From the NCBI GenBank assembly GCA_002633005.1, contig NMRA01000020.1:621522-685521 (forward strand): DNA of 64,000 nucleotides, read 5' to 3'. This document shows positions 9,511-46,096 of this stretch, piece by piece. The translations under genes and the position numbers were made by a program. Below the pieces are notes generated by a model. That model was not told the DNA's origin, ran no database searches, and saw nothing but the letters and a program-made list of their open reading frames with translations. The DNA is from Phoronis australis (taxonomy: Eukaryota; Animalia; Phoronida). The number at the start of each line of letters is the position of its first letter. Positions within the stretch are counted from its first letter, which is position 1.

Positions 9511-9682
9511 CCCTTCAGCCAAGGCGCGTGCCCAACGGCCCTGGAGAGATGGGCAGGGCAGTGGTGATCCCGCCAGACAAGAAGGCGTATTCTCAAGAGC
9601 AATTTAAGATCAACCAGTTCAACCTTGTAGCCAGTGAGATGATGTCACTGAACAGAAGCCTGCCGGACTACAGAATGGAGCA
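9511..9682 (+). CDS. GALNT1: GalNAc-T exon E2 (GPGEMGRAV...[24 protein letters not shown])
   Basis: ttacag acceptor, CA|GTGAGT donor; typical GPGEMG and NQFN..S..R.LPD.R motifs of GALNT1/13. Confidence 0.95.
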
Positions 9683-12319: not shown

Positions 12320-12489
12320 GTGTAAGTCCAAAGAGTATAACGTTGAAGAGCTTCCCACAACCAGTGTTGTCATTGTGTTCCATAATGAGGCATGGACTAC
12401 GCTACTTCGCACTGTTTGGAGCATTATCACCCGATCACCACGCCACCTGTTGAAGGAGATTATTCTCGTGGATGATGCTAGTGAACGAG
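12320..12489 (+). CDS. GALNT1: GalNAc-T exon E3 ([22 protein letters not shown]...EIILVDDAS)
   Basis: ttttcag acceptor, G|GTAGGT donor; GT-A Rossmann motif; phase 2->1 consistent. Confidence 0.97.
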
Positions 12490-13459: not shown

Positions 13460-13564
13460 ATTTCCTGGGCAAGAGACTAGAGCAGTACGTGGCCACTCTG
13501 CCCGTATCAGTCAAGGTGATAAGGATGGGCAAAAGGAGTGGATTAATCAGGGCCAGGTTGACAG
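13460..13564 (+). CDS. GALNT1: GalNAc-T exon E4 (DFLGKRLEQY...RSGLIRARL)
   Basis: tttgtag acceptor, G|GTAAGT donor; conserved RxGLIRARL; phase 1->1. Confidence 0.96.
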
Positions 13565-13979: not shown

Positions 13980-14082
13980 GTGCTGAGGCTACAAAGGGCA
14001 ACGTGATCACATTCCTAGATGCCCACTGTGAATGCACAGAGGGCTGGTTAGAACCACTACTCTATGAAATCTACAAGGACAG
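13980..14082 (+). CDS. GALNT1: GalNAc-T exon E5 with DxH metal-binding motif ([19 protein letters not shown])
   Basis: gtgtag acceptor, AG|GTAAAT donor; [15 protein letters not shown] signature; phase 1->2. Confidence 0.97.
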
Positions 14083-14234: not shown

Positions 14235-14405
14235 GACAAATGTGGTTTGTCCAATCATCGATGTGATCAGCGATGAGACATTTGAATACATCGCAGGGTC
14301 AGACATGACGTGGGGAGGCTTCAACTGGAAGCTCAACTTCAGGTGGTACCCTGTTCCACAGCGGGAACTGACCCGCAGAAACAATGACCGCAGTCTGCCT
14401 CTCAG
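14235..14405 (+). CDS. GALNT1: GalNAc-T exon E6 ([16 protein letters not shown]...[13 protein letters not shown])
   Basis: ttttcag acceptor, AG|GTGTGT donor; conserved GALNT1-type sequence; phase 2->2. Confidence 0.97.
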
Positions 14406-14888
14406 GTGTGTATACGTGCCTCTCAGGTGTGTTTATGTGTGTTTTAGTGTATTTTGTGATGTCGTGTGCACTTTGGATTTGTTGTTTTCAAAAAAATGAC
14501 AAAATTGTAGTGAAATTATTTTGTTTTGTCTAGCCAGTGCAAACATTCTGAAGAATTGGATTTGGGCTTGAATTTGTTTTTGCGTCATTAAGGACATATT
14601 TCAAACAGGTTCGGGGATGGGCCGCGCAAAAAGAACATTCTTTAGTTTACTCTCAACTGTTAAGCTACTGGAAGCTTTTTAATAACATTTTGGTCATGTC
14701 AGAAATTTACTCCCTGGGTATAATCCTCTGGCACTGCCTTCACCTCACTACCAGATGGTAGTTCTCAGTGGCATGTCTTAAAATTTTTATTGGCCAACGC
14801 AGAAATTATTTAACTGTATTATTCTGCTGTAACAGTGAAGAAGTCTGTGTTTGATGTTTCTGTTAGCATCATTTGTTTTTTGTTGTAG

Positions 14889-15006
14889 GTCACCAACCAT
14901 GGCTGGTGGTCTTTTTGCCATAGACAGGAGTTACTTCTATGAGATCGGATCCTATGACCCAGGCATGGATATTTGGGGTGGCGAGAACTTAGAAATGTCC
15001 TTCAGG
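14889..15006 (+). CDS. GALNT1: GalNAc-T exon E7, Gal/GalNAc-T motif (PTMAGGLF...[14 protein letters not shown])
   Basis: ttgtag acceptor, AGG|GTGCGT donor; WGGENLE motif; phase 2->0. Confidence 0.97.
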
Positions 15007-15425
15007 GTGCGTCATCTTTTGTAGTAAAGTTTTAGCCCCACGCATGTGTGGTTTTCTAGGCAGAAACATGCCACTTATCATAATGGAAGTAACTGTATTA
15101 TGCTGCTGATATAGTTTTCATCCAAATGTTTCGTGCAAGGCAGAATTGGACACTTTATGTTAAGTAATTTGTTGAAATCGGTTTGCTACATGGAATTAAA
15201 GTTTGAACGTTCACGTGCCGGTTTCAAATCAACGTTCTGTTAGGCTCAAGCTCTAAATGCCTAAGGATTGTAGTCTTGGTGTCTTGGTGTTTTTCACTGC
15301 GTAATAATTTTTGCTGTCTTGGTTTGGCTTTATGCTGTTACTACAGACACTAAATGTGATTTTTACGAAATCTCGCATCTAAACTGACTGAAGTTTGGAT
15401 AGAATGAAAAAATTTGGACTTTCAT

Positions 15426-16856
15426 TTTTATGCGCCCACATATTATATGTGGACGCATTATGCCGTCATCTCTGTCCGTCCGTCCGGGCGGCGTCCGGCA
15501 TCCGCTGCTCTATCTCCAAAACCCTTTGACATACGTTCATGAAATTTGTTCCATTCATGAATGGGACGGCATGTGCGAACTTTCGGACGGATGCGACTAC
15601 CGGTGTGCCCCCTAGTGGAATTTGGTATGTAGGCACGTATTAGTGAGATGATGCTATCCTGCCGTTTTCAGATGGATTCGACATAGTTTGCGTCACCTAG
15701 TGGCCATTTTTAGTGTTTTCGAGTCTGTTTTTGTGCGTCCACCCCTCTATCAACCAAACCGCTCAAAGGATGATTGTGAAAATTGGCATGTATATGCTTA
15801 CTATGTAGAGGACGGTTGACGATGATTTTCCGACGATTTCGACTACTGTNNNNNNNNNNNNNNNNNNNNNNNNNNNNNNNNNNNNNNNNNNNNNNNNNNN
15901 NNNNNNNNNNNNNNNNNNNNNNNNNNNNNNNNNNNNNNNNNNNNNNNNNNNNNNNNNNNNNNNNNNNNNNNNNNNNNNNNNNNNNNNNNNNNNNNNNNNN
16001 NNNNNNNNNNNNNNNNNNNNNNNNNNNNNNNNNNNNNNNNNNNNNNNNNNNNNNNNNNNNNNNNNNNNNNNNNNNNNNNNNNNNNNNNNNNNNNNNNNNN
16101 NNNNNNNNNNNNNNNNNNNNNNNNNNNNNNNNNNNNNNNNNNNNNNNNNNNNNNNNNNNNNNNNNNNNNNNNNNNNNNNNNNNNNNNNNNNNNNNNNNNN
16201 NNNNNNNNNNNNNNNNNNNNNNNNNNNNNNNNNNNNNNNNNNNNNNNNNNNNNNNNNNNNNNNNNNNNNNNNNNNNNNNNNNNNNNNNNNNNNNNNNNNN
16301 NNNNNNNNNNNNNNNNNNNNNNNNNNNNNNNNNNNNNNNNNNNNNNNNNNNNNNNNNNNNNNNNNNNNNNNNNNNNNNNNNNNNNNNNNNNNNNNNNNNN
16401 NNNNNNNNNNNNNNNNNNNNNNNNNNNNNNNNNNNNNNNNNNNNNNNNNNNNNNNNNNNNNNNNNNNNNNNNNNNNNNNNNNNNNNNNNNNNNNNNNNNN
16501 NNNNNNNNNNNNNNNNNNNNNNNNNNNNNNNNNNNNNNNNNNNNNNNNNNNNNNNNNNNNNNNNNNNNNNNNNNNNNNNNNNNNNNNNNNNNNNNNNNNN
16601 NNNNNNNNNNNNNNNNNNNNNNNNNNNNNNNNNNNNNNNNNNNNNNNNNNNNNNNNNNNNNNNNNNNNNNNNNNNNNNNNNNNNNNNNNNNNNNNNNNNN
16701 NNNNNNNNNNNNNNNNNNNNNNNNNNNNNNNNNNNNNNNNNNNNNNNNNNNNNNNNNNNNNNNNNNNNNNNNNNNNNNNNNNNNNNNNNNNNNNNNNNNN
16801 NNNNNNNNNNNNGGTGCAATTGTGGGCGCATTTCAACGCTCTGCATTGCTCTTGTT
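15426..16856 (+). mobile_element. Helentron-associated/DINE-like element spanning the assembly gap
   Basis: Subterminal inverted repeats ATGCGCCCACA (15430-15440) and TGTGGGCGCAT (16821-16831), GTCC microsatellite near the 5' end, 3' mini-hairpin, T-rich insertion site. Confidence 0.75.
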
Positions 16857-16952
16857 ACGTTTAAGTTTATTTATTCTTTCCTTTGATTTGGACGTCTATT
16901 GTTTCTCTCCTGTTGTTCTATTGTCTGTCATCTCTGGATGTCTCCAAACCAG

Positions 16953-17133
16953 ATCTGGATGTGTGGTGGCCAGGTGCTTATTGTCACGTGCTCCCATGTA
17001 GGACACGTGTTCCGCAAGGCGACGCCGTACACTTTCCCCGGCGGCACAGGGCGCATCATCAACCACAACAATGCCAGGCTATCGGAAGTCTGGCTGGATC
17101 AGTGGAAACATTTCTATTACAAAATCAATCCAG
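16953..17133 (+). CDS. GALNT1: GalNAc-T alternative exon E8a (IWMCGG...[20 protein letters not shown]...FYYKINP)
   Basis: ccag acceptor, CAG|GTTAGA donor, 181 nt, phase 0->1; closest to the GALNT1/13 loop sequence [13 protein letters not shown]. Confidence 0.95.
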
Positions 17134-17572
17134 GTTAGATAATGCGATAAAGCATCGCATGCGAATGGTCATGTTTTAGACTTGCCTGCATGGCTATACT
17201 TGACTTGTATCTTCAACCGCCTGACTGTTCTCTGACCTCAGGTAGTGCGGTGTTCACCTAAGACTTGGGGTTGAGGTTACAATGTTATTTGCCGTTGCAT
17301 GGTAGTTGTGTCTCCGAGGGCAGTACCTATTGTGGTGTTCATTTCCAGGAGTTAAATGTAATCAAAATAAACAGTTCGTATTTCATATTCATTTGAAGTA
17401 AGACTTCACGTGAAGTATTTTGCAAAGCGTACAGTGTCATTTGGATTTCATTACTTCCTCGATGCACCACACGTAATGTCCTCAGGAAACATAGTGCATT
17501 ATTTTGCCTCATTGTGCGGCTGTTCTAAACACGCATTTCTCTCCATCATTCATTCATTTCTGCACACAACAG

Positions 17573-17753
17573 GTGTGGATGTGCGGGGGCTCTGTCTTGA
17601 TCGCCACGTGCTCCCGCGTCGGACACGTCTTCCGAAAGGTCAGCCCATACTCGTGGCCAGGTGGCGTTAGTCGCATCCTCAACCACAACACCCAACGCAC
17701 GGCCGAGGTCTGGATGGACAAATACAAGAACTTCTATTACAAAATCAGCCCAG
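17573..17753 (+). CDS. GALNT1: GalNAc-T alternative exon E8b (VWMCGG...[20 protein letters not shown]...FYYKISP)
   Basis: acag acceptor, CAG|GTTCGA donor; same length (181 nt) and phase as E8a; 40/60 aa identical; no stops. Confidence 0.92.
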
Positions 17754-20451
17754 GTTCGACCTTTCACTCTTGACCTCTGCCTCTGAGGTCAGACCTTTGA
17801 CTCAAAGTGTCCTCTCTGGTTAAAGTTGCTGTGTCATTTCAGTGGGCAACACCACATTCACTTGCTGTTGCTTAATAAGAAAAACCTTCTTTTTAAACGT
17901 ATCAAAATAACCTGTTAATAAAAAACTTCATGAGATTCGATTGTGAGTTGTTTCACTAGCCTCACCCAGTGTATATAATGACTGACTATCTCACTGATGC
18001 AGTGGGTCTGATCATGTCGATTAATACTGACTGCATGTATAACATCACCATGACTGTAATTAATGGAAGTCATGCCATCTATTTCTTAAATGCCTGAGGA
18101 ACCTTCTATTAATATGATGATCATAATGACCATTAGTTAAGAAATGTCCACTGGATGACATGACAACTTCATGCTTGAATGTGTTTTGCTGTCGCCGTCT
18201 GCTTTCAGCTACTAACTTTCATCGTTTCTTCTAATGTTTGCGTTTGTTCTGTTTTCTAGGTCTGTGCGGCTTATTAACATTTATTAACCAATTGTTGTTG
18301 TGTCTGTCTATGAGTTGGCTGCTCACCAATTTGTCAGCATGCATCATATAGTTAGCTGATCACATGCTACTTGGCATGCTTGTGCTTCAGCTTGAGTTCA
18401 AGGGTTACTCGTGCAGCTGATCTCTGTGTGTTTGCATAATATGTGTGTGCATGTGTGTGGTAGAATGTGTGTCTGGTTGTTGAAAATTGTTTCACTGTCT
18501 TAACACTGTCACTGAACAGCACCAGCCGTGCGCAGTAGAGGGGAATGAGAACGCAGTGTTAGATTTCTTTTGGCTGTGTTTAATTGTTAGTCACCACAGT
18601 CATGTTCTGCCTTTATTTTGCATCGTTTTATCCAAAATCTTGTTAACTTTGAAATCATTCTTTACATAGTTTTCTTAATATGAAGTCTTAATATTAAGTG
18701 CCTTTCCTTTAAGAGCCAATCAACACCCGTCCATCAATCGATGACATTTCCATGGAAACAAAGCCACCACTGTCTAGACTTTACATTGTTCATCTTTGCC
18801 TGTACCATTAATTGAGTTAAGATGGTTGCATTCTGTAACCAATCAAATTAATTGCATTTTGTTTGGTGCATTGTCAGTTGACTTTCAAGGTTATTACTTG
18901 TTAACCCTTTGAAGCAAACGTTGCTGTAATCCAAATACAACAAACAGCATCATGTCTATGAAAGCTTAATATGCTATTTTGCACCACTGGTACATAATGG
19001 ATATCAGTGTCATGAGAGACAAGCTTCGTGCTTGCCTGTGTTAACCATCCACTGTTTTTGTGCTAAAATCTTGTTTAGTTTTTCTCCTTTTGTTTTGACT
19101 TTTAATTTGCTTGCATTGATGGTTAGTAAACACTGGAGAACTAGACTAAGTATCGATTATTTGTGGTCCTCAGTGAAATACTATGGTCACTTGGGATCTA
19201 TTAGTGTTTTCACTGTTACGGCTGGTGGGGTTTTTGTTATCCAGTTGAGTTTCAGATTCGCACTGTTTGTTGTGTGTGTAATGTAGTTTGCGTTCACTTG
19301 TTTGGTGTTGTTTACTGGCTGTTCTGAGTATTTGTTTTTAGTCTGGACTGCTGTGGCTGTGATGGTAGTTAGATGTTAATCTTTTTGAATTGTGATTGTC
19401 GCTTAAATAACTGGTCTCAAAATTCTGCAGGCCAGGATACTAAGTGATTTCTAAAATTAAAAAGAAATGGAAGGTCACTAATGATTGATAGAATGCAGTA
19501 CAGTTATGGGGGGGGGGTCTGCCCTGTCAAAATGCCCTGGGTTGTTGTTGATAATCTCTGAATGATGTGTTTTGGGATTGACATATAACTATGGCTGAAG
19601 TCTAGTGTCGTGTTATATCATGGTACGGAAAGTTTAAGGTGCGTTTTGTGTGGTTAACAAATCAGGTGTTTGTTTTAGACAGTGACTTCGAGGATAGGTC
19701 CCTGTAACGCCTGCTAATGCTGAGTGATTGGTGTTTATAAACTCTCGTGGAGGCTATTTTATTTTTGTTTAAAACGAATCACCTACAGTGTAATAAGGGT
19801 GTTTTCACTTAGTCAAAATGTCACCAGTCCCACATAATCAGTCTCCATTGCTTCTTGAGAGTCTCTCATTGGCTGACCAGTGAGGTGTGTTTTCTGGAAA
19901 GCTCAATTTAAGTTAAATCGGACTTTCGGGTGCGTGTCCTAACTATTCTGTTTGTAATCACATAAGGCTGTGTTTCGATTCTGTTTCATATATTATTTTT
20001 CAAAACTGATATCAAGATTTTCAGGGTTTTCCCTCTCCTTTGTGGCACTAGGACATGTAAGTCGACCAAATTGGGATAGCAGAGGCACATTTCATGTCAG
20101 ATCTTGCATTCAATTTTTAAAATGAGCCAAACATAATCTTATATAACCTCACCCCAGATGTGTTCTTACATGGCCTTGCACCATACATGGTCTTACAATT
20201 CCACTGGGTTTGATGAGCTATCTTCCCTCAGATCACCGTTTTGTATTTTTTAAATCTAAAAGCTGAAATGACAATCCTAAGTACGTTGATGATTTCGCAT
20301 TTTATAAAATTTCTCAAAATAACTTTTGCTGCATTACATTGAATGGTTTTGTGAAATATAATCCAGAACAGGGTCGCATTGATTTTAGTAGTCTGTTAGA
20401 AAGTTTCGACTATCCTAGCGCTTAGTATGATTTATCCCGTGTTATCGCCAG

Positions 20452-20591
20452 GCGTACGGCAGACAGATTATGGGGATGTGTCCGAGCGCAAAGCTCTGAG
20501 AGAAAAGCTCAAATGCAAGAGTTTCCATTGGTACTTGGAGAACATCTACCCCGAGTCACAGATGCCTCTGGATTACTACTCTTTGGGAACA
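20452..20591 (+). CDS. GALNT1: GalNAc-T exon E9 ([30 protein letters not shown])
   Basis: gccag acceptor, A|GTGAGT donor; conserved end of catalytic domain and linker; phase 1->0. Confidence 0.97.
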
Positions 20592-20741
20592 GTGAGTGAA
20601 ATTATCGTCTGCGATGAATTAGTCATGCTCTAGTCCTGAATTAAATGGTGTTCATGAAACTGCGCGTAAGTGGAGTTGACATTACTATCTACAGACTGTC
20701 TGCATTGAAGCTTGGATGCCTTTTTGAAGTTCTCTGAGGAA

Positions 20742-20799
20742 TGTGTGTGTGTGTGCGTGCATGCGTGTGTTTGTGTGTGTGTGCGTGCATGCGTGTGTG
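20742..20799. repeat. Imperfect (TG)n microsatellite
   Basis: Directly visible. Confidence 0.9.
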
Positions 20800-21546
20800 A
20801 ACCAGACATGAAGTCAGTTTTATGAAGAGTGACCAAAGTCTTTAGACAGAACTTTGGTCTTATACTCCCTATTCACAATTGCTGAATAAGGATAATTATG
20901 AGAGCATCACGGTTTACAAATAATACATTCAGCAACTAGCAGTTTTCAATTGTGTAACTACATTCTTGGAGATTTTGCGTTTTTTTTGCGCAAATGACGT
21001 TTAATAGTTTTTCAGAAATAGTTCTGCGTAGCACAAAATCAAATTTCGGACTTAAGTCTCATCTAATTCTTCATGAGACAGACCCCTGTTATAGTTTGGA
21101 CTCTGTAGTTAAATTTGTATTACACGTTTCCATAACGTTTTTGCCTTGAGAATGACCTGAGTTGTGTCTTTAACGCACATGTGAGATTCCTCTGATTGAC
21201 CATAGGAAACCCATTTTCAATTGGCTCATGCTTTCATATAAACTGACAAAATGTGCTTGTTCGTAAGGGGTTTGTTGATGTTATGTTCAGCAGCTGTGTT
21301 GACTCAAAATCACTTGTCATGTAGAACTATTTACAGTCCTCTGTTACACAGTGAGCATATGTTTGAAGCAGATGGATCTTGTGGGACCCTGATCACATGT
21401 AGAAAATTTAAAATTTGAAATCTTGCAACTTGTTGACAGTTCAGTATCACTGCATCATTGCTAGTCCATTGAGTATGTATTCAGCTGCTGATGTAGCATT
21501 TTAGCTTTGTTGGTGTATACCGTAACCCCTGTGTGATGACTTTCAG

Positions 21547-21645
21547 ATAAAGAACAAACAAACTGGAAAGTGCCTTGACAGTATGGGTCGAAAGAGTGGG
21601 GAGAAACTGGGAATGGTCAACTGCCACGGAATGGGGGGGAACCAG
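21547..21645 (+). CDS. GALNT1: GalNAc-T exon E10, ricin-B lectin alpha repeat ([25 protein letters not shown])
   Basis: ttttcag acceptor, CAG|GTATTG donor; CLD...CHGxGGNQ motif; 99 nt, phase 0-0. Confidence 0.96.
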
Positions 21646-22307
21646 GTATTGGGATTGTCAGTCGTGTCTGCAGACAAACTTGGAAATTATTATAATCAGT
21701 ATTCAGACTGTCCGATTGTCAGGCTCACTTGGCAGATAGATTTTAGAGAACAATTAAATTTCGAAAATTGCCAAATGTGAAATTTACATGGAATTTACTA
21801 TGACAATATAGAATGGAAAGGATTTTGTATAAAGGTCCTGTGTGATTAACTTTGTTAAGTCTTCGCCTATTTAGTGCTTGCTGTGACTGACTAGTCTGAT
21901 TTTAGTTTGATAAATTTCTCCACAAAAATGTAATGGTTTGAAATGCACAGCTCTCATTATACAGAACCCAGTGAAAGTTTGCTCGTTGCAAGGTTATCGG
22001 CCATTGAAATGATATTTTAACAATTGCCTTGTGTGAAATAGGCGACGAATTGCCATTAAAGTTTTTAGTGATTATTTGAAGATAAAGAAGGCAATAATGT
22101 TTAATCCCATGTCATCCCCTGTCTCATTTACTCTTGAATGTATTGAGACCATAGTTTTGTGTGTTTTACTGTCTATTAACTTAAGTGTAAATAATGCATT
22201 TCAAGCCACGGCTAGTTGACTTGCTTGATCAGTGCTGAGAGCTGTGCTAGAATTGCTGTCATGTTGAGTCGTTCATTGTTTTTTGTACGTTTTTCTCCTG
22301 CTGCCAG

Positions 22308-22442
22308 ATTTTCTCGTACTCAAAGAAGAAGGCATTTCAGACAGATGACGTCTGCATTGATGTGTCGGCCGTCAACGGTCCCGTCAATCTGTTTCAGTGT
22401 CACGGGCTGGGGGGAAACCAGCATTGGGAATACAACCGGCAG
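22308..22442 (+). CDS. GALNT1: GalNAc-T alternative exon E11a, lectin beta repeat (IFSYSKKKAFQTDDVCIDVSAVNGPVNLFQCHGLGGNQHWEYNRQ)
   Basis: ctgccag acceptor, CAG|GTTTGT donor; 135 nt, phase 0-0; CxD..CH...NQxW motif. Confidence 0.94.
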
Positions 22443-23017
22443 GTTTGTCATGACGCATCACCTTGCATGGTTGATGTCGACGTGTGAAGGATGTAGGGAA
22501 TCATGGACAGTCTTGATGGCAGGAGGGCTGTTTCACACATTATCTGACTGTCCTTGTGTGATTTTGAAAATTGTCTTGGAGTTTTGCTTTCCCAGCATGA
22601 CTTCTGAGATCTTAAAAATGGTCTGTTGTATGAACCATTGAATTTTGTTTAAAGTTGCCAAATCCTTACTTTTTTAACCAATTTTGATTTTACGAATTGT
22701 CACAATTTTTGTTCTGTAAACATGCCTGTTACCAACAGCTAATAAATATCCATTGTATTAGTGCCACATGGACTATATTTCTCAGAATGCAAGGAACACA
22801 AACAGATACAGTATGAAACTGGGCCCCTGAACTGTTTATCATTGCACACAATATGCAAATATTCTCCCAGGTGTTTGTGTTTGTGTGTAACGGTTTTGAG
22901 ACTCCACCCTTCCCTCATCTCTCCTGTCCATGATTCGTCGCCATCGTTCACGCCCGGCCCCGTCATCTGTATCACTAACACGGCTCGTCGTTTCACCTTC
23001 GTATTTTTGCTCTTCAG

Positions 23018-23143
23018 ATTTTTTCTTATGTGGCCACCAAACAAATACAGGCCGACGACCTGTGCATAGGTGCACAGTACTACACCGCCATACTAATGTC
23101 TTGTCACACGGTGTCCGGCGGACAATGGCTTTATGATCGACAG
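23018..23143 (+). CDS. GALNT1: GalNAc-T alternative exon E11b, divergent lectin beta repeat (IFSYVATKQIQADDLCIGAQYYTAILMSCHTVSGGQWLYDRQ)
   Basis: Branch point CACTAAC at 22973-22979, tcttcag acceptor, CAG|GTAGTG donor; 126 nt, phase 0-0; shares IFSY, QxDDxCI, CH and WxYxRQ with E11a. Confidence 0.88.
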
Positions 23144-24514
23144 GTAGTGTTGACGCATCTCCTGGGAAGGGTTTGGGTATCTGGTCTGGAAAACGTTTTA
23201 ATGTCTGCCAGTTGCGCTGTTCACGCTTTTTCAATTTTTATGAATTTCGTGTTGAGTTTTGTTCGAAAGCTTTGAATTTTTTTCTCTGTTGAAGAACAAT
23301 GATACAGTTATTGGGAGCATGTTAATAAAGCATTTTGTTATTATTTAATAAACGATGGTCTACTGTGGCAGTCAAATAAGTAGATGTTTTAATTTTTTGA
23401 TACTTTAAAAAGGAATGACTTTATCCTAATGATATTTATTGCATAATTCTCCGTAGCACCGGAAAATTCAGGGATTTCATTTATGGCGCTGCTTCTGTAT
23501 TTCAAATGCATTGTGTGAGGGTTGTCAGTTTGTACTTACTAGGTGATATCACAGATTACTTGTTGATGTGTACACAATGTGAAGGAAAACTTGCGCACAC
23601 GAGAATTATAAGCAAACTCCACTACAACATGTCTTTGGGTGCAAGTGTAACAAAATAGCCATCATAGAAGAAATAAACAGTGAAAGTGAGCCTCTAAAGG
23701 CATCAATATTTGATTAGCAATTTTTGGCGGAAGATTTTCGAGTCATGCCCCATCCAGTCGTTTGGTGTCGGATCTCACCACCTGAAATGCAAATCATGAA
23801 ACAAGTTATACACCCACAAGTTATCTATGTTGTCACTAGATGTTTATGAACTGACAAGTGTCCCACAATGCATTTGGGTAACAACAGCACCGCCACAGGT
23901 GAGATTGCCTGAATTGAGTTGTTTGACCAGGTCTCAAATTGTTGTTTGCTTCTTATTTGTCAAATAGTCGGTGTGGAGTGCTTGGTGCCCTGCTTCTTTA
24001 GTTTCTTCTGAATCGTCAAAACATGATTCATGTTAGCCGAAATCCATTTTTTATCAAGTAATACGGTTGATGAAAGGTTTGTTCAGGTCATGTAGGACTG
24101 TGGCTGATCTAAATGAAACTTTTAGACACTTCCCTTATGCGCTACTCTCCTAAATGCTGTTAGGGATTGGTGTTGAAATTGTCCACCTTTGCATGAGGGC
24201 TTTCAAAAACAAGAATGTCTAATAAAATTTGATCATGCTATTAATACTTTCAAAGTATCATGTTTTTGCTAAAAACTTGGTCATGTGACCTAATGAATGA
24301 CAGATTTGTAAAAAGTCAAAAATCAAATTCTACAGGCTTACTATGTTGGAAAGATAAACTTAGAATCTATAGGTTTGTAGATATTTGGCTAAGTATACTA
24401 AATATAAAAATAATAATTGCAGGTGGTCTGGTATACGTTGTACCAGACACCTCAGGTTGGCCCATTGCACTGATCACCTGGAACCATTTTTATGCTTTGT
24501 TAATATATAATAGT

Positions 24515-28000: not shown

Positions 28001-28079
28001 ACTCTTACAATAATGCACACTAACTCCAAGCAGTGTCTCGACACACCCAAACCAAATGAACCTAATGTGCCATCTCTTG
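28001..28079 (+). CDS. GALNT1: GalNAc-T exon E12, lectin gamma repeat (TLTIMHTNSKQCLDTPKPNEPNVPSL)
   Basis: tttttgcag acceptor, G|GTGAGT donor; H.NS.QCLD motif; phase 0->1. Confidence 0.93.
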
Positions 28080-28685: not shown

Positions 28686-28750
28686 GACCCTGCAATGGAA
28701 GCCCATCACAGCAGTGGATCTTGTCCGACATGGACTGGAACAAGATGTAG
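28686..28750 (+). CDS. GALNT1: GalNAc-T terminal coding exon E13 (GPCNGSPSQQWILSDMDWNKM*)
   Basis: tttttccag acceptor; phase matches E12; C.GS.SQQW motif; TAG at 28748-28750. Confidence 0.92.
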
Positions 28751-43470: not shown

Positions 43471-43662
43471 GAGAAAACCATTCACGTAATAAATCCTTCT
43501 CTTGCAATTTCCTTAACAAGGATGAACATTTGGAAAAGTTGGAACAAGTTGTCCCTCAATATATGCGTCACGTAAACTTTAAGTTTACTGAAAGGTCATC
43601 GACTTGGATATAATATGCATGTTTTTGGTTTTCTTATCAATTTTGCTATTCTCGTTACATAG

Positions 43663-46096
43663 GGAAAAGACTGGCAATAATCCAAAGGTCGTTAGTAGAA
43701 ACCAACTGAAATCAAGCCTGTCTTCAAATAAAGACCGCCTTAAAGCTCTGGTGCTGAAAAAGATACCTAAAGAAGAACTTTTAACAATTCTGAATAAGAA
43801 AAGGGAATTAGAAAAAGCCTTTCAAGGGAAGAGGCAGCTAAATGTATGCTCTGATAGCTCTAATAACACCACAGAAGAAATTTCAAAGCGATTTTACCAA
43901 AACTCTTATAACGCTGGTCGACAGCAAGAACACATTTGTGAACGAGAAAAACTCTATGTTGAGTTGAGTATGACTACCCTTAATGCTACAGTGGCAGACA
44001 GAGTGGTTCTTTATTTTCTGCAGGCTGTAAAAGAAATTCTCAAGCCTCATTACTGTTGGACCAATAGTGTCGTATCCAGAAAGAGTATGTGCACACCAGA
44101 AGTGTCTCCAGTCGCGACACACGTTGCGGCCACAAGACAAAGTGTGCTTCTGAAGGATGCCACGCAGGACAGAAGATTTAATAACAGGTCTGTAGTCAAC
44201 AATGAACTCTCAGTCATCTGTATTCCTTTAATTAACGTCGACAAGGAACTAGTTGGCGTTATTGAGTTAAGCAGAGGCCAAGAAAGACCACCGTTTACAG
44301 AAAAGCATTACCGTATTGCCGAGGGGTTCATTGTGTGGGCGTGCCTCGGAATCAACCAAGTGATGCAAAAGTTTGTCAACAAACAAAAAAAGAAATTGAA
44401 TACTTTCCTGCTGGATGTTACCAACGACATATTTTACGACGTTAGACAACTTCACAACGTGATGGCGAAGACAATGACTCATTCTAAAGCCCTCGTAGGC
44501 GCTGAACGCTGCGCCGTGGCGTTTTTGGACAAGCTTCACAGTGAACTTTGCGTGACATTGCGGGACGTGGGTGAACAAGATAGTTCAGGGCAGCCGGTGT
44601 ACTCGAACCTAGTCAAAAGTCTGAGGTTCCCTGTCAGCGAATCTTTCATCCAACGCATTGCCAGCTCGGGAAATATATTTGTCCATGACAAAATGGACCA
44701 AAAGTTCACCAGTTGCGTTAAGGTTCTAAGTGAGCTTTGCAACGTGGAAGTGAGGAACATGATTTATAATTTTGTTGTGTACAAAGGCGAGACCCTTGGA
44801 ATGCTAGCAGTTCTAAACAAGCCAGAAAACGAAACCTTTTGTGAAGAGGACGTTGAAATGTTGAAAGTGTTTGGTGGCTATTTCTCGATAGCGCTAAATT
44901 ACTCAAAAATTTACAGTGAGATGAAAGTGAAAGAAGACTGTGCTAACGTTGCTATAGAGCAACTTCAAAGCCAGGCTATGAAACAAGACAAGAGTCTGGG
45001 AGAGAACTTGATGAAGAATCCTATCACGAAAGACAACGTTCCACAAGATATCTACTCTCACTTGTTTTCTATCGAGGATAATATTAAGGGTATATTAGAT
45101 AGTCTGTTCATCTTCATGGTTCACGATTTATTTGGTAACATACTGGATGAAGTAAAACTCTGCAGCTTCACAGAGGCTGTGTACCGTAACTACAGAACAG
45201 TGCCTTATCACAACTGGCAGCATGCCTTCTATGTCTCTCATTGCATGTACATAGTTCTGAAAGACCCCATTATGGTCACAGGTCTTACCGAGCTGGAGCG
45301 ATTGGGCCTTCTCATTGCTTGCATTTGTCACGACTTGGATCATCGCGGATACAATAACACGTTCTTCGAGAAGTTGAACCTTCCGCTCGCTGCCTTGTAT
45401 TCGACATCCGTGATGGAGCAACACCATTTTCACACGACGGTGCTAATTTTACAACAGGATAGTAACACTATTTTCGACCACTTCTCAACAGAACAATATC
45501 AGGAGATGCTGGCATTTATACGACACGCTATTATTTCAACGGATTTGTCTGTTTACTTTGGGCTCAATAAGCCAAAGCTAGAAGGTTTGGTGAAAAGTCA
45601 AACATTCGATGTTTCTAACCCTGAACACAAAGATGTGATGATTGCAGTCACTATGACTGCTTGTGATTTGTGTGCAGCTGCCAAACCTTGGACGCATCAG
45701 GTTAAAAGTGTGAAAGCTCTCTACGATGAGTTTTACGTTCAAGGTGACATCGAGAAAGATCGTGGTTTCGAGCCAATAGCAATGATGAACCGCGAAAACA
45801 ACGAGAAACTTGCCGACCAGCAAAGTGGATTCATGAAGTTCGTAGCTGTTCCTTTATACTCGACTCTTGGAAAAGTGATTCCCGTGGTCAAAGAAATAGA
45901 AGCCACCGTCAATGCAAATTTGGAAAATTGGATTAGAATCGGTATGGGGGAGACGATCCCTCCATGGGAGCCATCAATGACTTCAACCATAGGTACAGAC
46001 ACTGCATGGGCTCACAAAGAATCACTCCGTTCGGTAAAGTCACTGTTCCCATTTAACGAGGCAGAAAACATCAATCAAAAACCAAAGAATCACTAA
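43663..46096 (+). CDS. PDE10A: PDE10-like GAF-GAF cyclic nucleotide phosphodiesterase, single 2.4 kb coding exon; start at ATG 43619 or in an unidentified upstream exon
   Basis: Frame open from 43604 to 46096. YHNWQHAF, CHDLDHRGYNN...PLAALYSTSVMEQHHF, MTACDLC, EF..QGD and QSGF (invariant Gln plus Phe clamp) match the PDE10 pattern. GAF-B has NK...F..D.E. A pyrimidine tract and catag acceptor end at 43662. AATAAA at 46274-46279. Confidence 0.9.

Follow-up and report, generated by a model that had tools for sequence, protein, structure and literature searches.

Two mutually exclusive exon pairs, for the catalytic loop and the lectin beta repeat, in a GalNAc-T1-type glycosyltransferase gene of Phoronis australis

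How thousands of O-glycosites are covered by approximately 10–20 polypeptide GalNAc-transferase (GalNAc-T) isoenzymes, which initiate mucin-type glycans, is an open question. A GalNAc-T gene of the phoronid Phoronis australis, located on the forward strand of a 64,000 nucleotide (nt) stretch of contig NMRA01000020.1 (hereafter the window, with coordinates counted from its first nucleotide), raises the related question of how many enzymes one such gene may provide. Two of its exons occur as tandem pairs, E8a/E8b for the catalytic loop and E11a/E11b for the lectin domain's beta repeat, and these constitute a real double system of mutually exclusive exons in a known gene family. With a probability of roughly 0.58, each message takes one of the two catalytic-loop exons and one of the two beta-repeat exons, and the resulting enzymes likely differ in peptide preference and in the binding of N-acetylgalactosamine (GalNAc) by the beta pocket. 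Exon swaps are known singly in the fly, in the loop of PGANT5 and the alpha repeat of PGANT9, while here both kinds are combined in one scaffold.

The four exons are present as the original prediction, made from the nucleotide letters alone, had described them, in two tandem pairs of 181/181 and 135/126 nt, all open and bounded by GT-AG splice sites. E8a (16953..17133, 181 nt) encodes the catalytic flexible loop and helix-turn-helix in a form resembling GalNAc-T1 and PGANT5B, and E8b (17573..17753, 181 nt) is a spiralian-type alternative for the same 60 residues. E11a (22308..22442, 135 nt; positions 40-86 of PF00652) encodes a lectin beta repeat with the Asp-His-Asn (D-H-N) GalNAc triad, and E11b (23018..23143, 126 nt) a beta repeat without it. 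E8a and E8b are identical at 40/60 residues (67 %) and 123/181 nt, and E11a and E11b are 44 % identical. A tblastn search of the window revealed no third copy of either exon, with the limit that a 963-N assembly gap (15850..16812) in the intron between E7 and E8a might conceal another copy. All four a/b combinations, joined to E2–E7, E9, E10, E12 and E13, remain open to a common stop at 28750.

Expression was assessed in three raw-read runs (X1, X2 and X3; 151-nt reads) from one study with the same species label, approximately 18–19 % of each being read, and in a Logan contig set (X4). Joints were listed at this low depth where at least three reads from two starts supported them, and reads resembling human DNA had been dropped from the read sets, so that the a/b ratios may be biased. 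E8a is joined to the common linker exon E9 (20452..20591) by 18 reads (11/2/5 in X1/X2/X3) and E8b by 16 (2/6/8, with seven for X2 in a second alignment), while 99 reads (42/23/34) join E9 to E10 (21547..21645), the common alpha repeat. Entry into E11a from E10 is supported by 40 reads (16/10/14) and into E11b by 16 (8/1/7), and exit to E12 by 36 (12/4/20) and 44 (3/16/25) reads, respectively. On the upstream side, loose read ends carrying the 3' letters of the common exon E7 (14889..15006) precede both E8a (nine in X1, four in X3) and E8b (three in X1, five in X3), with none listed for X2. No E8a–E8b, E11a–E11b or E10–E12 joint was listed at three reads and two starts in X1–X3, and no foreign loose ends occur before E9 among the rows listed. 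The X4 contigs contain both E11 forms, E11b included, and no piece covering either E8 exon. All six exonic variant sites listed are synonymous. The original prediction had proposed junction counts as a check on the b exons, and such reads were found on both sides of E8b and of E11b. Each copy is joined to both common flanks with no copy-to-copy joint listed, in agreement with expressed, mutually exclusive pairs. Two RefSeq isoforms, P0205 (Biomphalaria isoform X5) and P0216 (Mytilus isoform X6), skip the beta exon altogether, a skip unseen in the reads analysed here.

By sequence comparison, the gene is an orthologue of GALNT1/GALNT13/pgant5, encoding a GalNAc-T1/T13/PGANT5-type member of the GT27 family. 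The DxH and GHVF motifs that mark the GT-A domain of this family are distributed over E5, E7 and E8, and the lectin domain PF00652 is matched by E10 and E11a. The full-length homologue P0005 matches mouse T1 with an E value of 6e-250, against 7e-149 for PGANT9, with T2 also far weaker, so that GalNAc-T1 is the nearest relative of solved structure. The D-H-N triad is present in both the alpha (E10) and beta (E11a) repeats, as in GalNAc-T1, and is lacking in E11b. Over the constitutive exons the best matches share 80–82 % identity.

The E8 exons align column for column with residues 398-457 of dipteran pgant5 models. The alternative exon that the original prediction named for fly pgant5 does exist and lies at the E8 position, as the two fly isoforms PGANT5A and PGANT5B differ at residues 398-457 (bioRxiv 10.64898/2025.12.22.695686). 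The same source states that Asp419 of PGANT5 favours basic mucin peptides, that Pro457 improves lectin-aided activity, and that, since helix II lies against the alpha repeat, the alternative exon alters lectin-aided activity on glycopeptides too (bioRxiv 10.64898/2025.12.22.695686). The clean division originally envisaged, with the loop exon tuning peptide and the lectin exon glycopeptide specificity, is thus not supported by the behaviour of the equivalent PGANT5 exon. Both E8a and E8b carry Lys at position 419 and Pro at position 457, so that the fly determinants (Asp/Lys 419 and Thr/Pro 457) are absent, and the Asp/Lys charge mechanism is ruled out by sequence for E8. The two types are distinguished instead by differences that include H412R, A420V/T, T421S, F425W, T429V, N437T and L440T/I (nine a-type and 14 b-type rows), among which the His to Arg, Ala-Thr to Val-Ser, Phe to Trp and Thr to Val replacements would alter the substrate groove of E8b-containing enzymes.

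E8a and E8b belong, on the comparative sequence evidence, to an old spiralian exon pair. Their nearest named matches are annelid (Capitella, 88 %; Owenia, 87 %), two further loci (L039 and L041) contain E8a followed by E8b, both of 181 nt with GT-AG sites, and one Lingula model holds both. The ratio of non-synonymous to synonymous substitution rates (dN/dS) of E8b against three loci is 0.07-0.16, indicating purifying selection and not the value near 1 that the original prediction had named as grounds for abandoning it. Trees were constructed from 51 rows and then from 40, with the eleven rows dropped being mostly long or redundant. They contain a spiralian b clade (support 100/99), a clade of arthropod A exons (96/96) and a spiralian a clade that is supported in the 51-row tree (95/91) and not starred in the 40-row tree. 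In approximately unbiased (AU) tests a duplication specific to the window was rejected (p-AU 0.0013), while neither a grouping of arthropod A with E8b, as expected from a shared duplication (p-AU 0.26), nor of spiralian a with b (0.25) was rejected. The free E8 tree groups the arthropod copies together (92/90). Furthermore, the T1-like copy lies first here and second in arthropod models, a reversed order which favours separate origins of the spiralian and arthropod pairs. The suggestion that the pairs may be ancient is supported in so far as both are old. A common ancestry with the fly pair is disfavoured by the reversed order and not rejected by the AU tests. Among loci L001-L055, thirteen hold both E7 and E9, twelve with one b-type E8 and one with two, although the survey query favoured b-type matches and one of the twelve (L022) looks spliced. 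The b-type exon was found in 41/44 listed members of four mollusc clusters, the other three being fragments without the region, and the a-type exon in 7/7 listed members of two nemertean clusters.

GalNAc-T1's beta repeat binds GalNAc through D484, H498 and N503 and steers glycosylation to sites N-terminal to a sugar already in place, and the D484A mutant has a 29-fold lower kcat/KM on a beta-dependent glycopeptide (PMC10901373). E11a retains this triad and its pocket is predicted to be on. In E11b, Gly replaces the triad Asp and the Asn is missing, with both Cys and the final Trp being kept. In all five database models with both E11 copies (Lamellibrachia, Argonauta, Tegillarca, Biomphalaria and Bradybaena) the first carries D-H-N, the full triad being absent from the second, and D-H-N occurs in 31/57 aligned beta-repeat rows, two proteins having been dropped where the segment was not extracted. 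In an AlphaFold model of a b-type isoform from an oyster the lectin strands are retained, with block means of the predicted local distance difference test of 86-91 over residues 491-530, and mouse T1 is the best match of this model. Since the triad is lost while the repeat appears folded, E11b is likely a folded beta repeat with the GalNAc pocket switched off. E11a enzymes would thus, like GalNAc-T1, glycosylate on either side of a GalNAc already present, and E11b enzymes may act like T1 D484A and lose N-terminal follow-up, which would make E11b a natural counterpart of the beta-pocket knockout engineered in GalNAc-T1. The E11 exon tree has long branches and poor resolution, and a window-specific duplication is not rejected (p-AU 0.18). 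A homologue search with E11b alone returned one candidate and none scoring. An E11 profile search listed 150 matches, and the segments shown for these, largely of the a or clitellate type, included neither a close E11b match nor a vertebrate alternative exon. Five loci spanned from E10 to E12 (L001, L002, L010, L017 and L034) have one beta exon, mostly without the full triad, and one E8b-type exon, both clusters having apparently collapsed.

The two clusters would differ in how double inclusion is avoided. Inclusion of both E8 exons, or of neither, leads to a computed frameshift and an early stop, and such messages would be removed by decay. Inclusion or skipping of both E11 exons keeps the frame, and double inclusion may be blocked here by an RNA stem in the 575-nt intron between E11a and E11b. 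The predicted arms of this stem, on the forward strand, lie at 22482..22527 and 22907..22953 and contain a perfect 13-bp core (22498-22510 with 22924-22936). Pair probabilities reach 0.98-1.0 at 22482-22488, 22490-22492, 22498-22510 and 22515-22518, and 0.6-0.9 elsewhere. The intron fold has a z score of -3.23 (0/100 shuffles as stable), the perfect core is reached in 0/300 shuffles and is the strongest among ten introns tested, and the end-to-end duplex of -75 kcal/mol compares with -28.6 to -49.3 in ten other introns and is matched by 0/483 random pairs. A scan for the consensus pattern places the likely, unmapped, E11b branch point at 22973..22979 (branch A 22978, forward strand). The closed stem would leave approximately 39 + 24 nt, about 60 nt in all, between the E11a donor and this branch point. 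Weaker pairs (0.4-0.6) are predicted between the donor region and a stretch just past the branch point. Comparison of the introns against eight loci showed no conservation beyond the splice sites. The fold of the E8a–E8b intron is only moderate (z -2.10), and 222/300 shuffles equal the longest perfect stem in it. A 12-bp perfect inverted repeat in the E10–E11a intron (21945-21956/22236-22247) was reached in 4/300 shuffles, which is borderline after ten tests. An identical 9-mer directly follows both E11 donors (22451-22459 and 23151-23159), as either a relic of duplication or a shared regulatory site. No docking site is proposed for this 9-mer, which lacks a perfect complement in the stretch from E10 to E12 and whose 12 near matches in the window are at chance level (9.8 expected).

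Several observations weigh against the reading that the two exon choices yield enzymes differing in both peptide preference and beta-pocket binding. E11b alone has no Pfam match and shares at most approximately 45 % identity with other second copies, and dN/dS could be computed for E8b and not for E11b. A variant of human GalNAc-T13 with an alternative lectin exon reportedly has nearly unchanged activity. At L041, the only other locus with two E11 exons that was compared, both beta exons (14687-14821 and 15329-15463) keep D-H-N, this locus having E8a and E8b as well, and its intron lacks a stem of the kind predicted here (z +0.80). The predicted stem has no covariation support, and the distance, at about 60 nt, narrowly exceeds the steric limit of 50 nt applied in PMC5740500. 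Furthermore, the two clusters are 239 nt apart in the message, more than one 151-nt read, and no read in X1–X3 spans both; as no molecule spanning both clusters was seen, we infer the four combinations. The share of the b exon at the exit junctions (X1/X2/X3) is 0.15/0.78/0.62 for E8b and 0.20/0.80/0.56 for E11b, values that fit a strict a-a/b-b coupling (p 0.97). Finally, in X2 the E11 entry junctions (10 a/1 b) disagree with the exit junctions (4 a/16 b; Fisher p 0.0004), so that junction counts must be noisier than binomial. Double inclusion of E11 was rejected as the cause of this mismatch, as loose ends behind E11a carry E12 letters only.

These counts lead to the best-surviving alternative, in which the choices are coupled and mainly two enzymes are made, E8a+E11a, which would be T1-like and bidirectional, and E8b+E11b, with an altered groove and only the alpha pocket. 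The exit shares of E8b and E11b vary among samples (p 0.008 and 0.002, respectively) and match each other in all three; a-a/b-b coupling is not rejected (p 0.35-0.99) whereas a-b/b-a coupling is (p below 0.001); and X1 is the lowest for both clusters by read depth as well, with b shares of 0.43/0.54/0.71 for E8 and 0.39/0.52/0.54 for E11. These are, however, three samples from one study, in which a shared tissue regulator would yield identical marginals even if single molecules were not coupled, and the match is broken by the X3 depth shares (0.71 against 0.54) and by the X2 entry junctions. In molluscs an E8b-type exon is found alongside E11 exons of both types, and the relatives P0067 and P0193 (535/581 residues identical) have one E11 type in common but carry E8a or E8b, mixed pairings that lend weak support, being models and assemblies of other species. 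No long-range pairing between the clusters stood out. Coupling is considered rather unlikely. The independence of the two switches that had been claimed is nevertheless not borne out, in view of the missing spanning reads and the exit shares that fit a-a/b-b coupling, and the read counts hint at co-regulation. Under the preferred reading of two choices per message, all four combinations are probably made, in proportions that would be tissue-biased and co-regulated.

The alternative that E11b is a relaxed or re-tuned repeat, with a small effect or acting through surface charge or the alpha repeat, is unlikely, though it draws on several lines of evidence. The second E11 copies diverge fast, with only an F, two C and a W common to all, and a single origin of these copies is not rejected (p-AU 0.42). 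T1's alpha repeat and its beta repeat affect each other (PMC10901373), and PGANT9A and PGANT9B, which swap alpha repeats of opposite net charge, act through the charge of the swapped repeat (PMC6115407). Against this, the triad-less second copy has been kept across gastropods, bivalves, cephalopods and one chiton and is abundant in the RNA here, and the net charges of E11a and E11b (0 and -1) are nearly equal. A reading of E8b and E11b as dead copies or artefacts of the assembly, as the assembly gap in the region and the X4 contigs without a piece on either E8 exon might suggest, is highly improbable and is refuted by stranded junction reads that flank each b exon on either side, besides the solely synonymous variants and the conservation of E8b orthologues.

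A wider evolutionary scenario can be offered only tentatively, and we hold it to be possible rather than probable. The ancestral spiralian GalNAc-T1 gene may have had two switches, a groove exon and an on/off choice of the beta pocket governing the direction of follow-up, with exclusivity imposed by an intronic RNA clamp. All four enzymes would have been kept here, molluscs would have fixed E8b, nemerteans show E8a only, and clitellate-like genomes would have been reduced to a single E8b-type exon and a single beta exon without the triad. The lineage pattern also provides an instance in which exons at identical functional positions were duplicated and lost repeatedly. Each part of the system has a precedent, which for the loop switch is published and direct, and the mollusc isoforms are in RefSeq. 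The pairing of both switches, the conserved loss of the beta pocket and the candidate RNA clamp are likely new. A literature search yielded no report of two exon clusters in one GalNAc-T gene, nor of a beta exon devoid of the triad, although it was not aimed at molluscs or annelids and most subscription journals lay outside it.

The remaining coding exons extend on the forward strand from E2 (9511..9682), which encodes the stem and the start of the catalytic domain, through E3 (12320..12489, with the FHNEA motif), E4 (13460..13564), E5 (13980..14082, with the metal-binding DAH motif) and E6 (14235..14405), all open with GT-AG sites, to E7 with its SPTMAGG and WGGEN motifs. Downstream of E9 lie E10 (D-H-N; PF00652 positions 5-38) and E12 (28001..28079), the common gamma repeat, open with GT-AG sites and RNA support, and the coding part of E13 (28686..28750), followed by RNA coverage of the 3' untranslated region. 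A transmembrane exon upstream of E2 was not located in the window. A dispersed repeat has its edge at 16813-16858 and occurs, next to varying sequence, in hundreds of RNA reads. Elsewhere in the window, an 834-codon stop-free frame (43592-46093, forward strand) encodes two GAF domains, together with a domain of cyclic nucleotide phosphodiesterases (PF00233, E 3e-68). It is apparently intronless, which is unusual for an animal GAF-phosphodiesterase gene, and lies between two reverse-transcriptase fragments (PF00078; 33259-33735 and 47087-47677, forward strand), which are probably retrotransposon remnants. The frame may represent a retrocopy.

The system shares features with several known cases of exclusive splicing. 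In the two-exon cluster of Dscam exon 17, RNA structure reportedly acts in concert with steric limits, while the stem described here is a predicted one. Vertebrate GALNT13 belongs to the same orthologous group, and the beta exon of vertebrates shares its boundaries with E11 (genomic open reading frames P0248 and P0251). The alternative event of GALNT13 reportedly involves this beta exon ('Ex10b'). A literature search for the term returned no paper, and an alternative GALNT13 isoform was not reached in cluster look-ups. The GALNT13 alternative exon named in the original prediction is itself upheld: PMC9741552 (table S5) lists GALNT13, Pgant5 and gly-5 as tandem exon substitution genes, with the region of GALNT13 differing from that of Pgant5 and classed as convergent. 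GALNT13 was not found in the supplements of PMC5740500. In Caenorhabditis elegans, exons 9b/9c/9a of gly-5 and 8b/8a of gly-6 are validated as mutually exclusive and have lengths of 3n (PMC4165533). With 102-111 nt, these exons are nearer to E10 than to E11 in size, and they are kept exclusive by introns of 34 and 11 nt, in contrast to the 575-nt intron found here. The fly pgant9A/9B pair, cited in the original prediction as a precedent, is one in so far as an alternative exon swaps a single ricin-type lectin repeat of a GalNAc-T. It concerns another paralogue, however, and PMC6115407 describes the alpha and not the beta repeat, whereas here the beta repeat is swapped with loss of the triad and little change of charge. 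For the loop switch the direct parallel is fly pgant5A/5B, which belongs to the same orthologous group and swaps the same 60-residue segment, with E8a matching the PGANT5B/T1 type, but which relies on the Asp419 switch and the Thr/Pro457 difference where both exons here have Lys and Pro. Arthropod models place the T1-like E8 second and have a single beta exon, as opposed to a T1-like E8 in first position and two beta exons in the phoronid. In molluscs, the X1/X2 isoforms of GALNT1/13-like RefSeq entries (Crassostrea, Dreissena, Liolophura, Octopus and others) already include E11a and E11b alternatives by automatic annotation. The mollusc entries seen contain only an E8b-type exon, and hence have one switch where the Phoronis gene has two.

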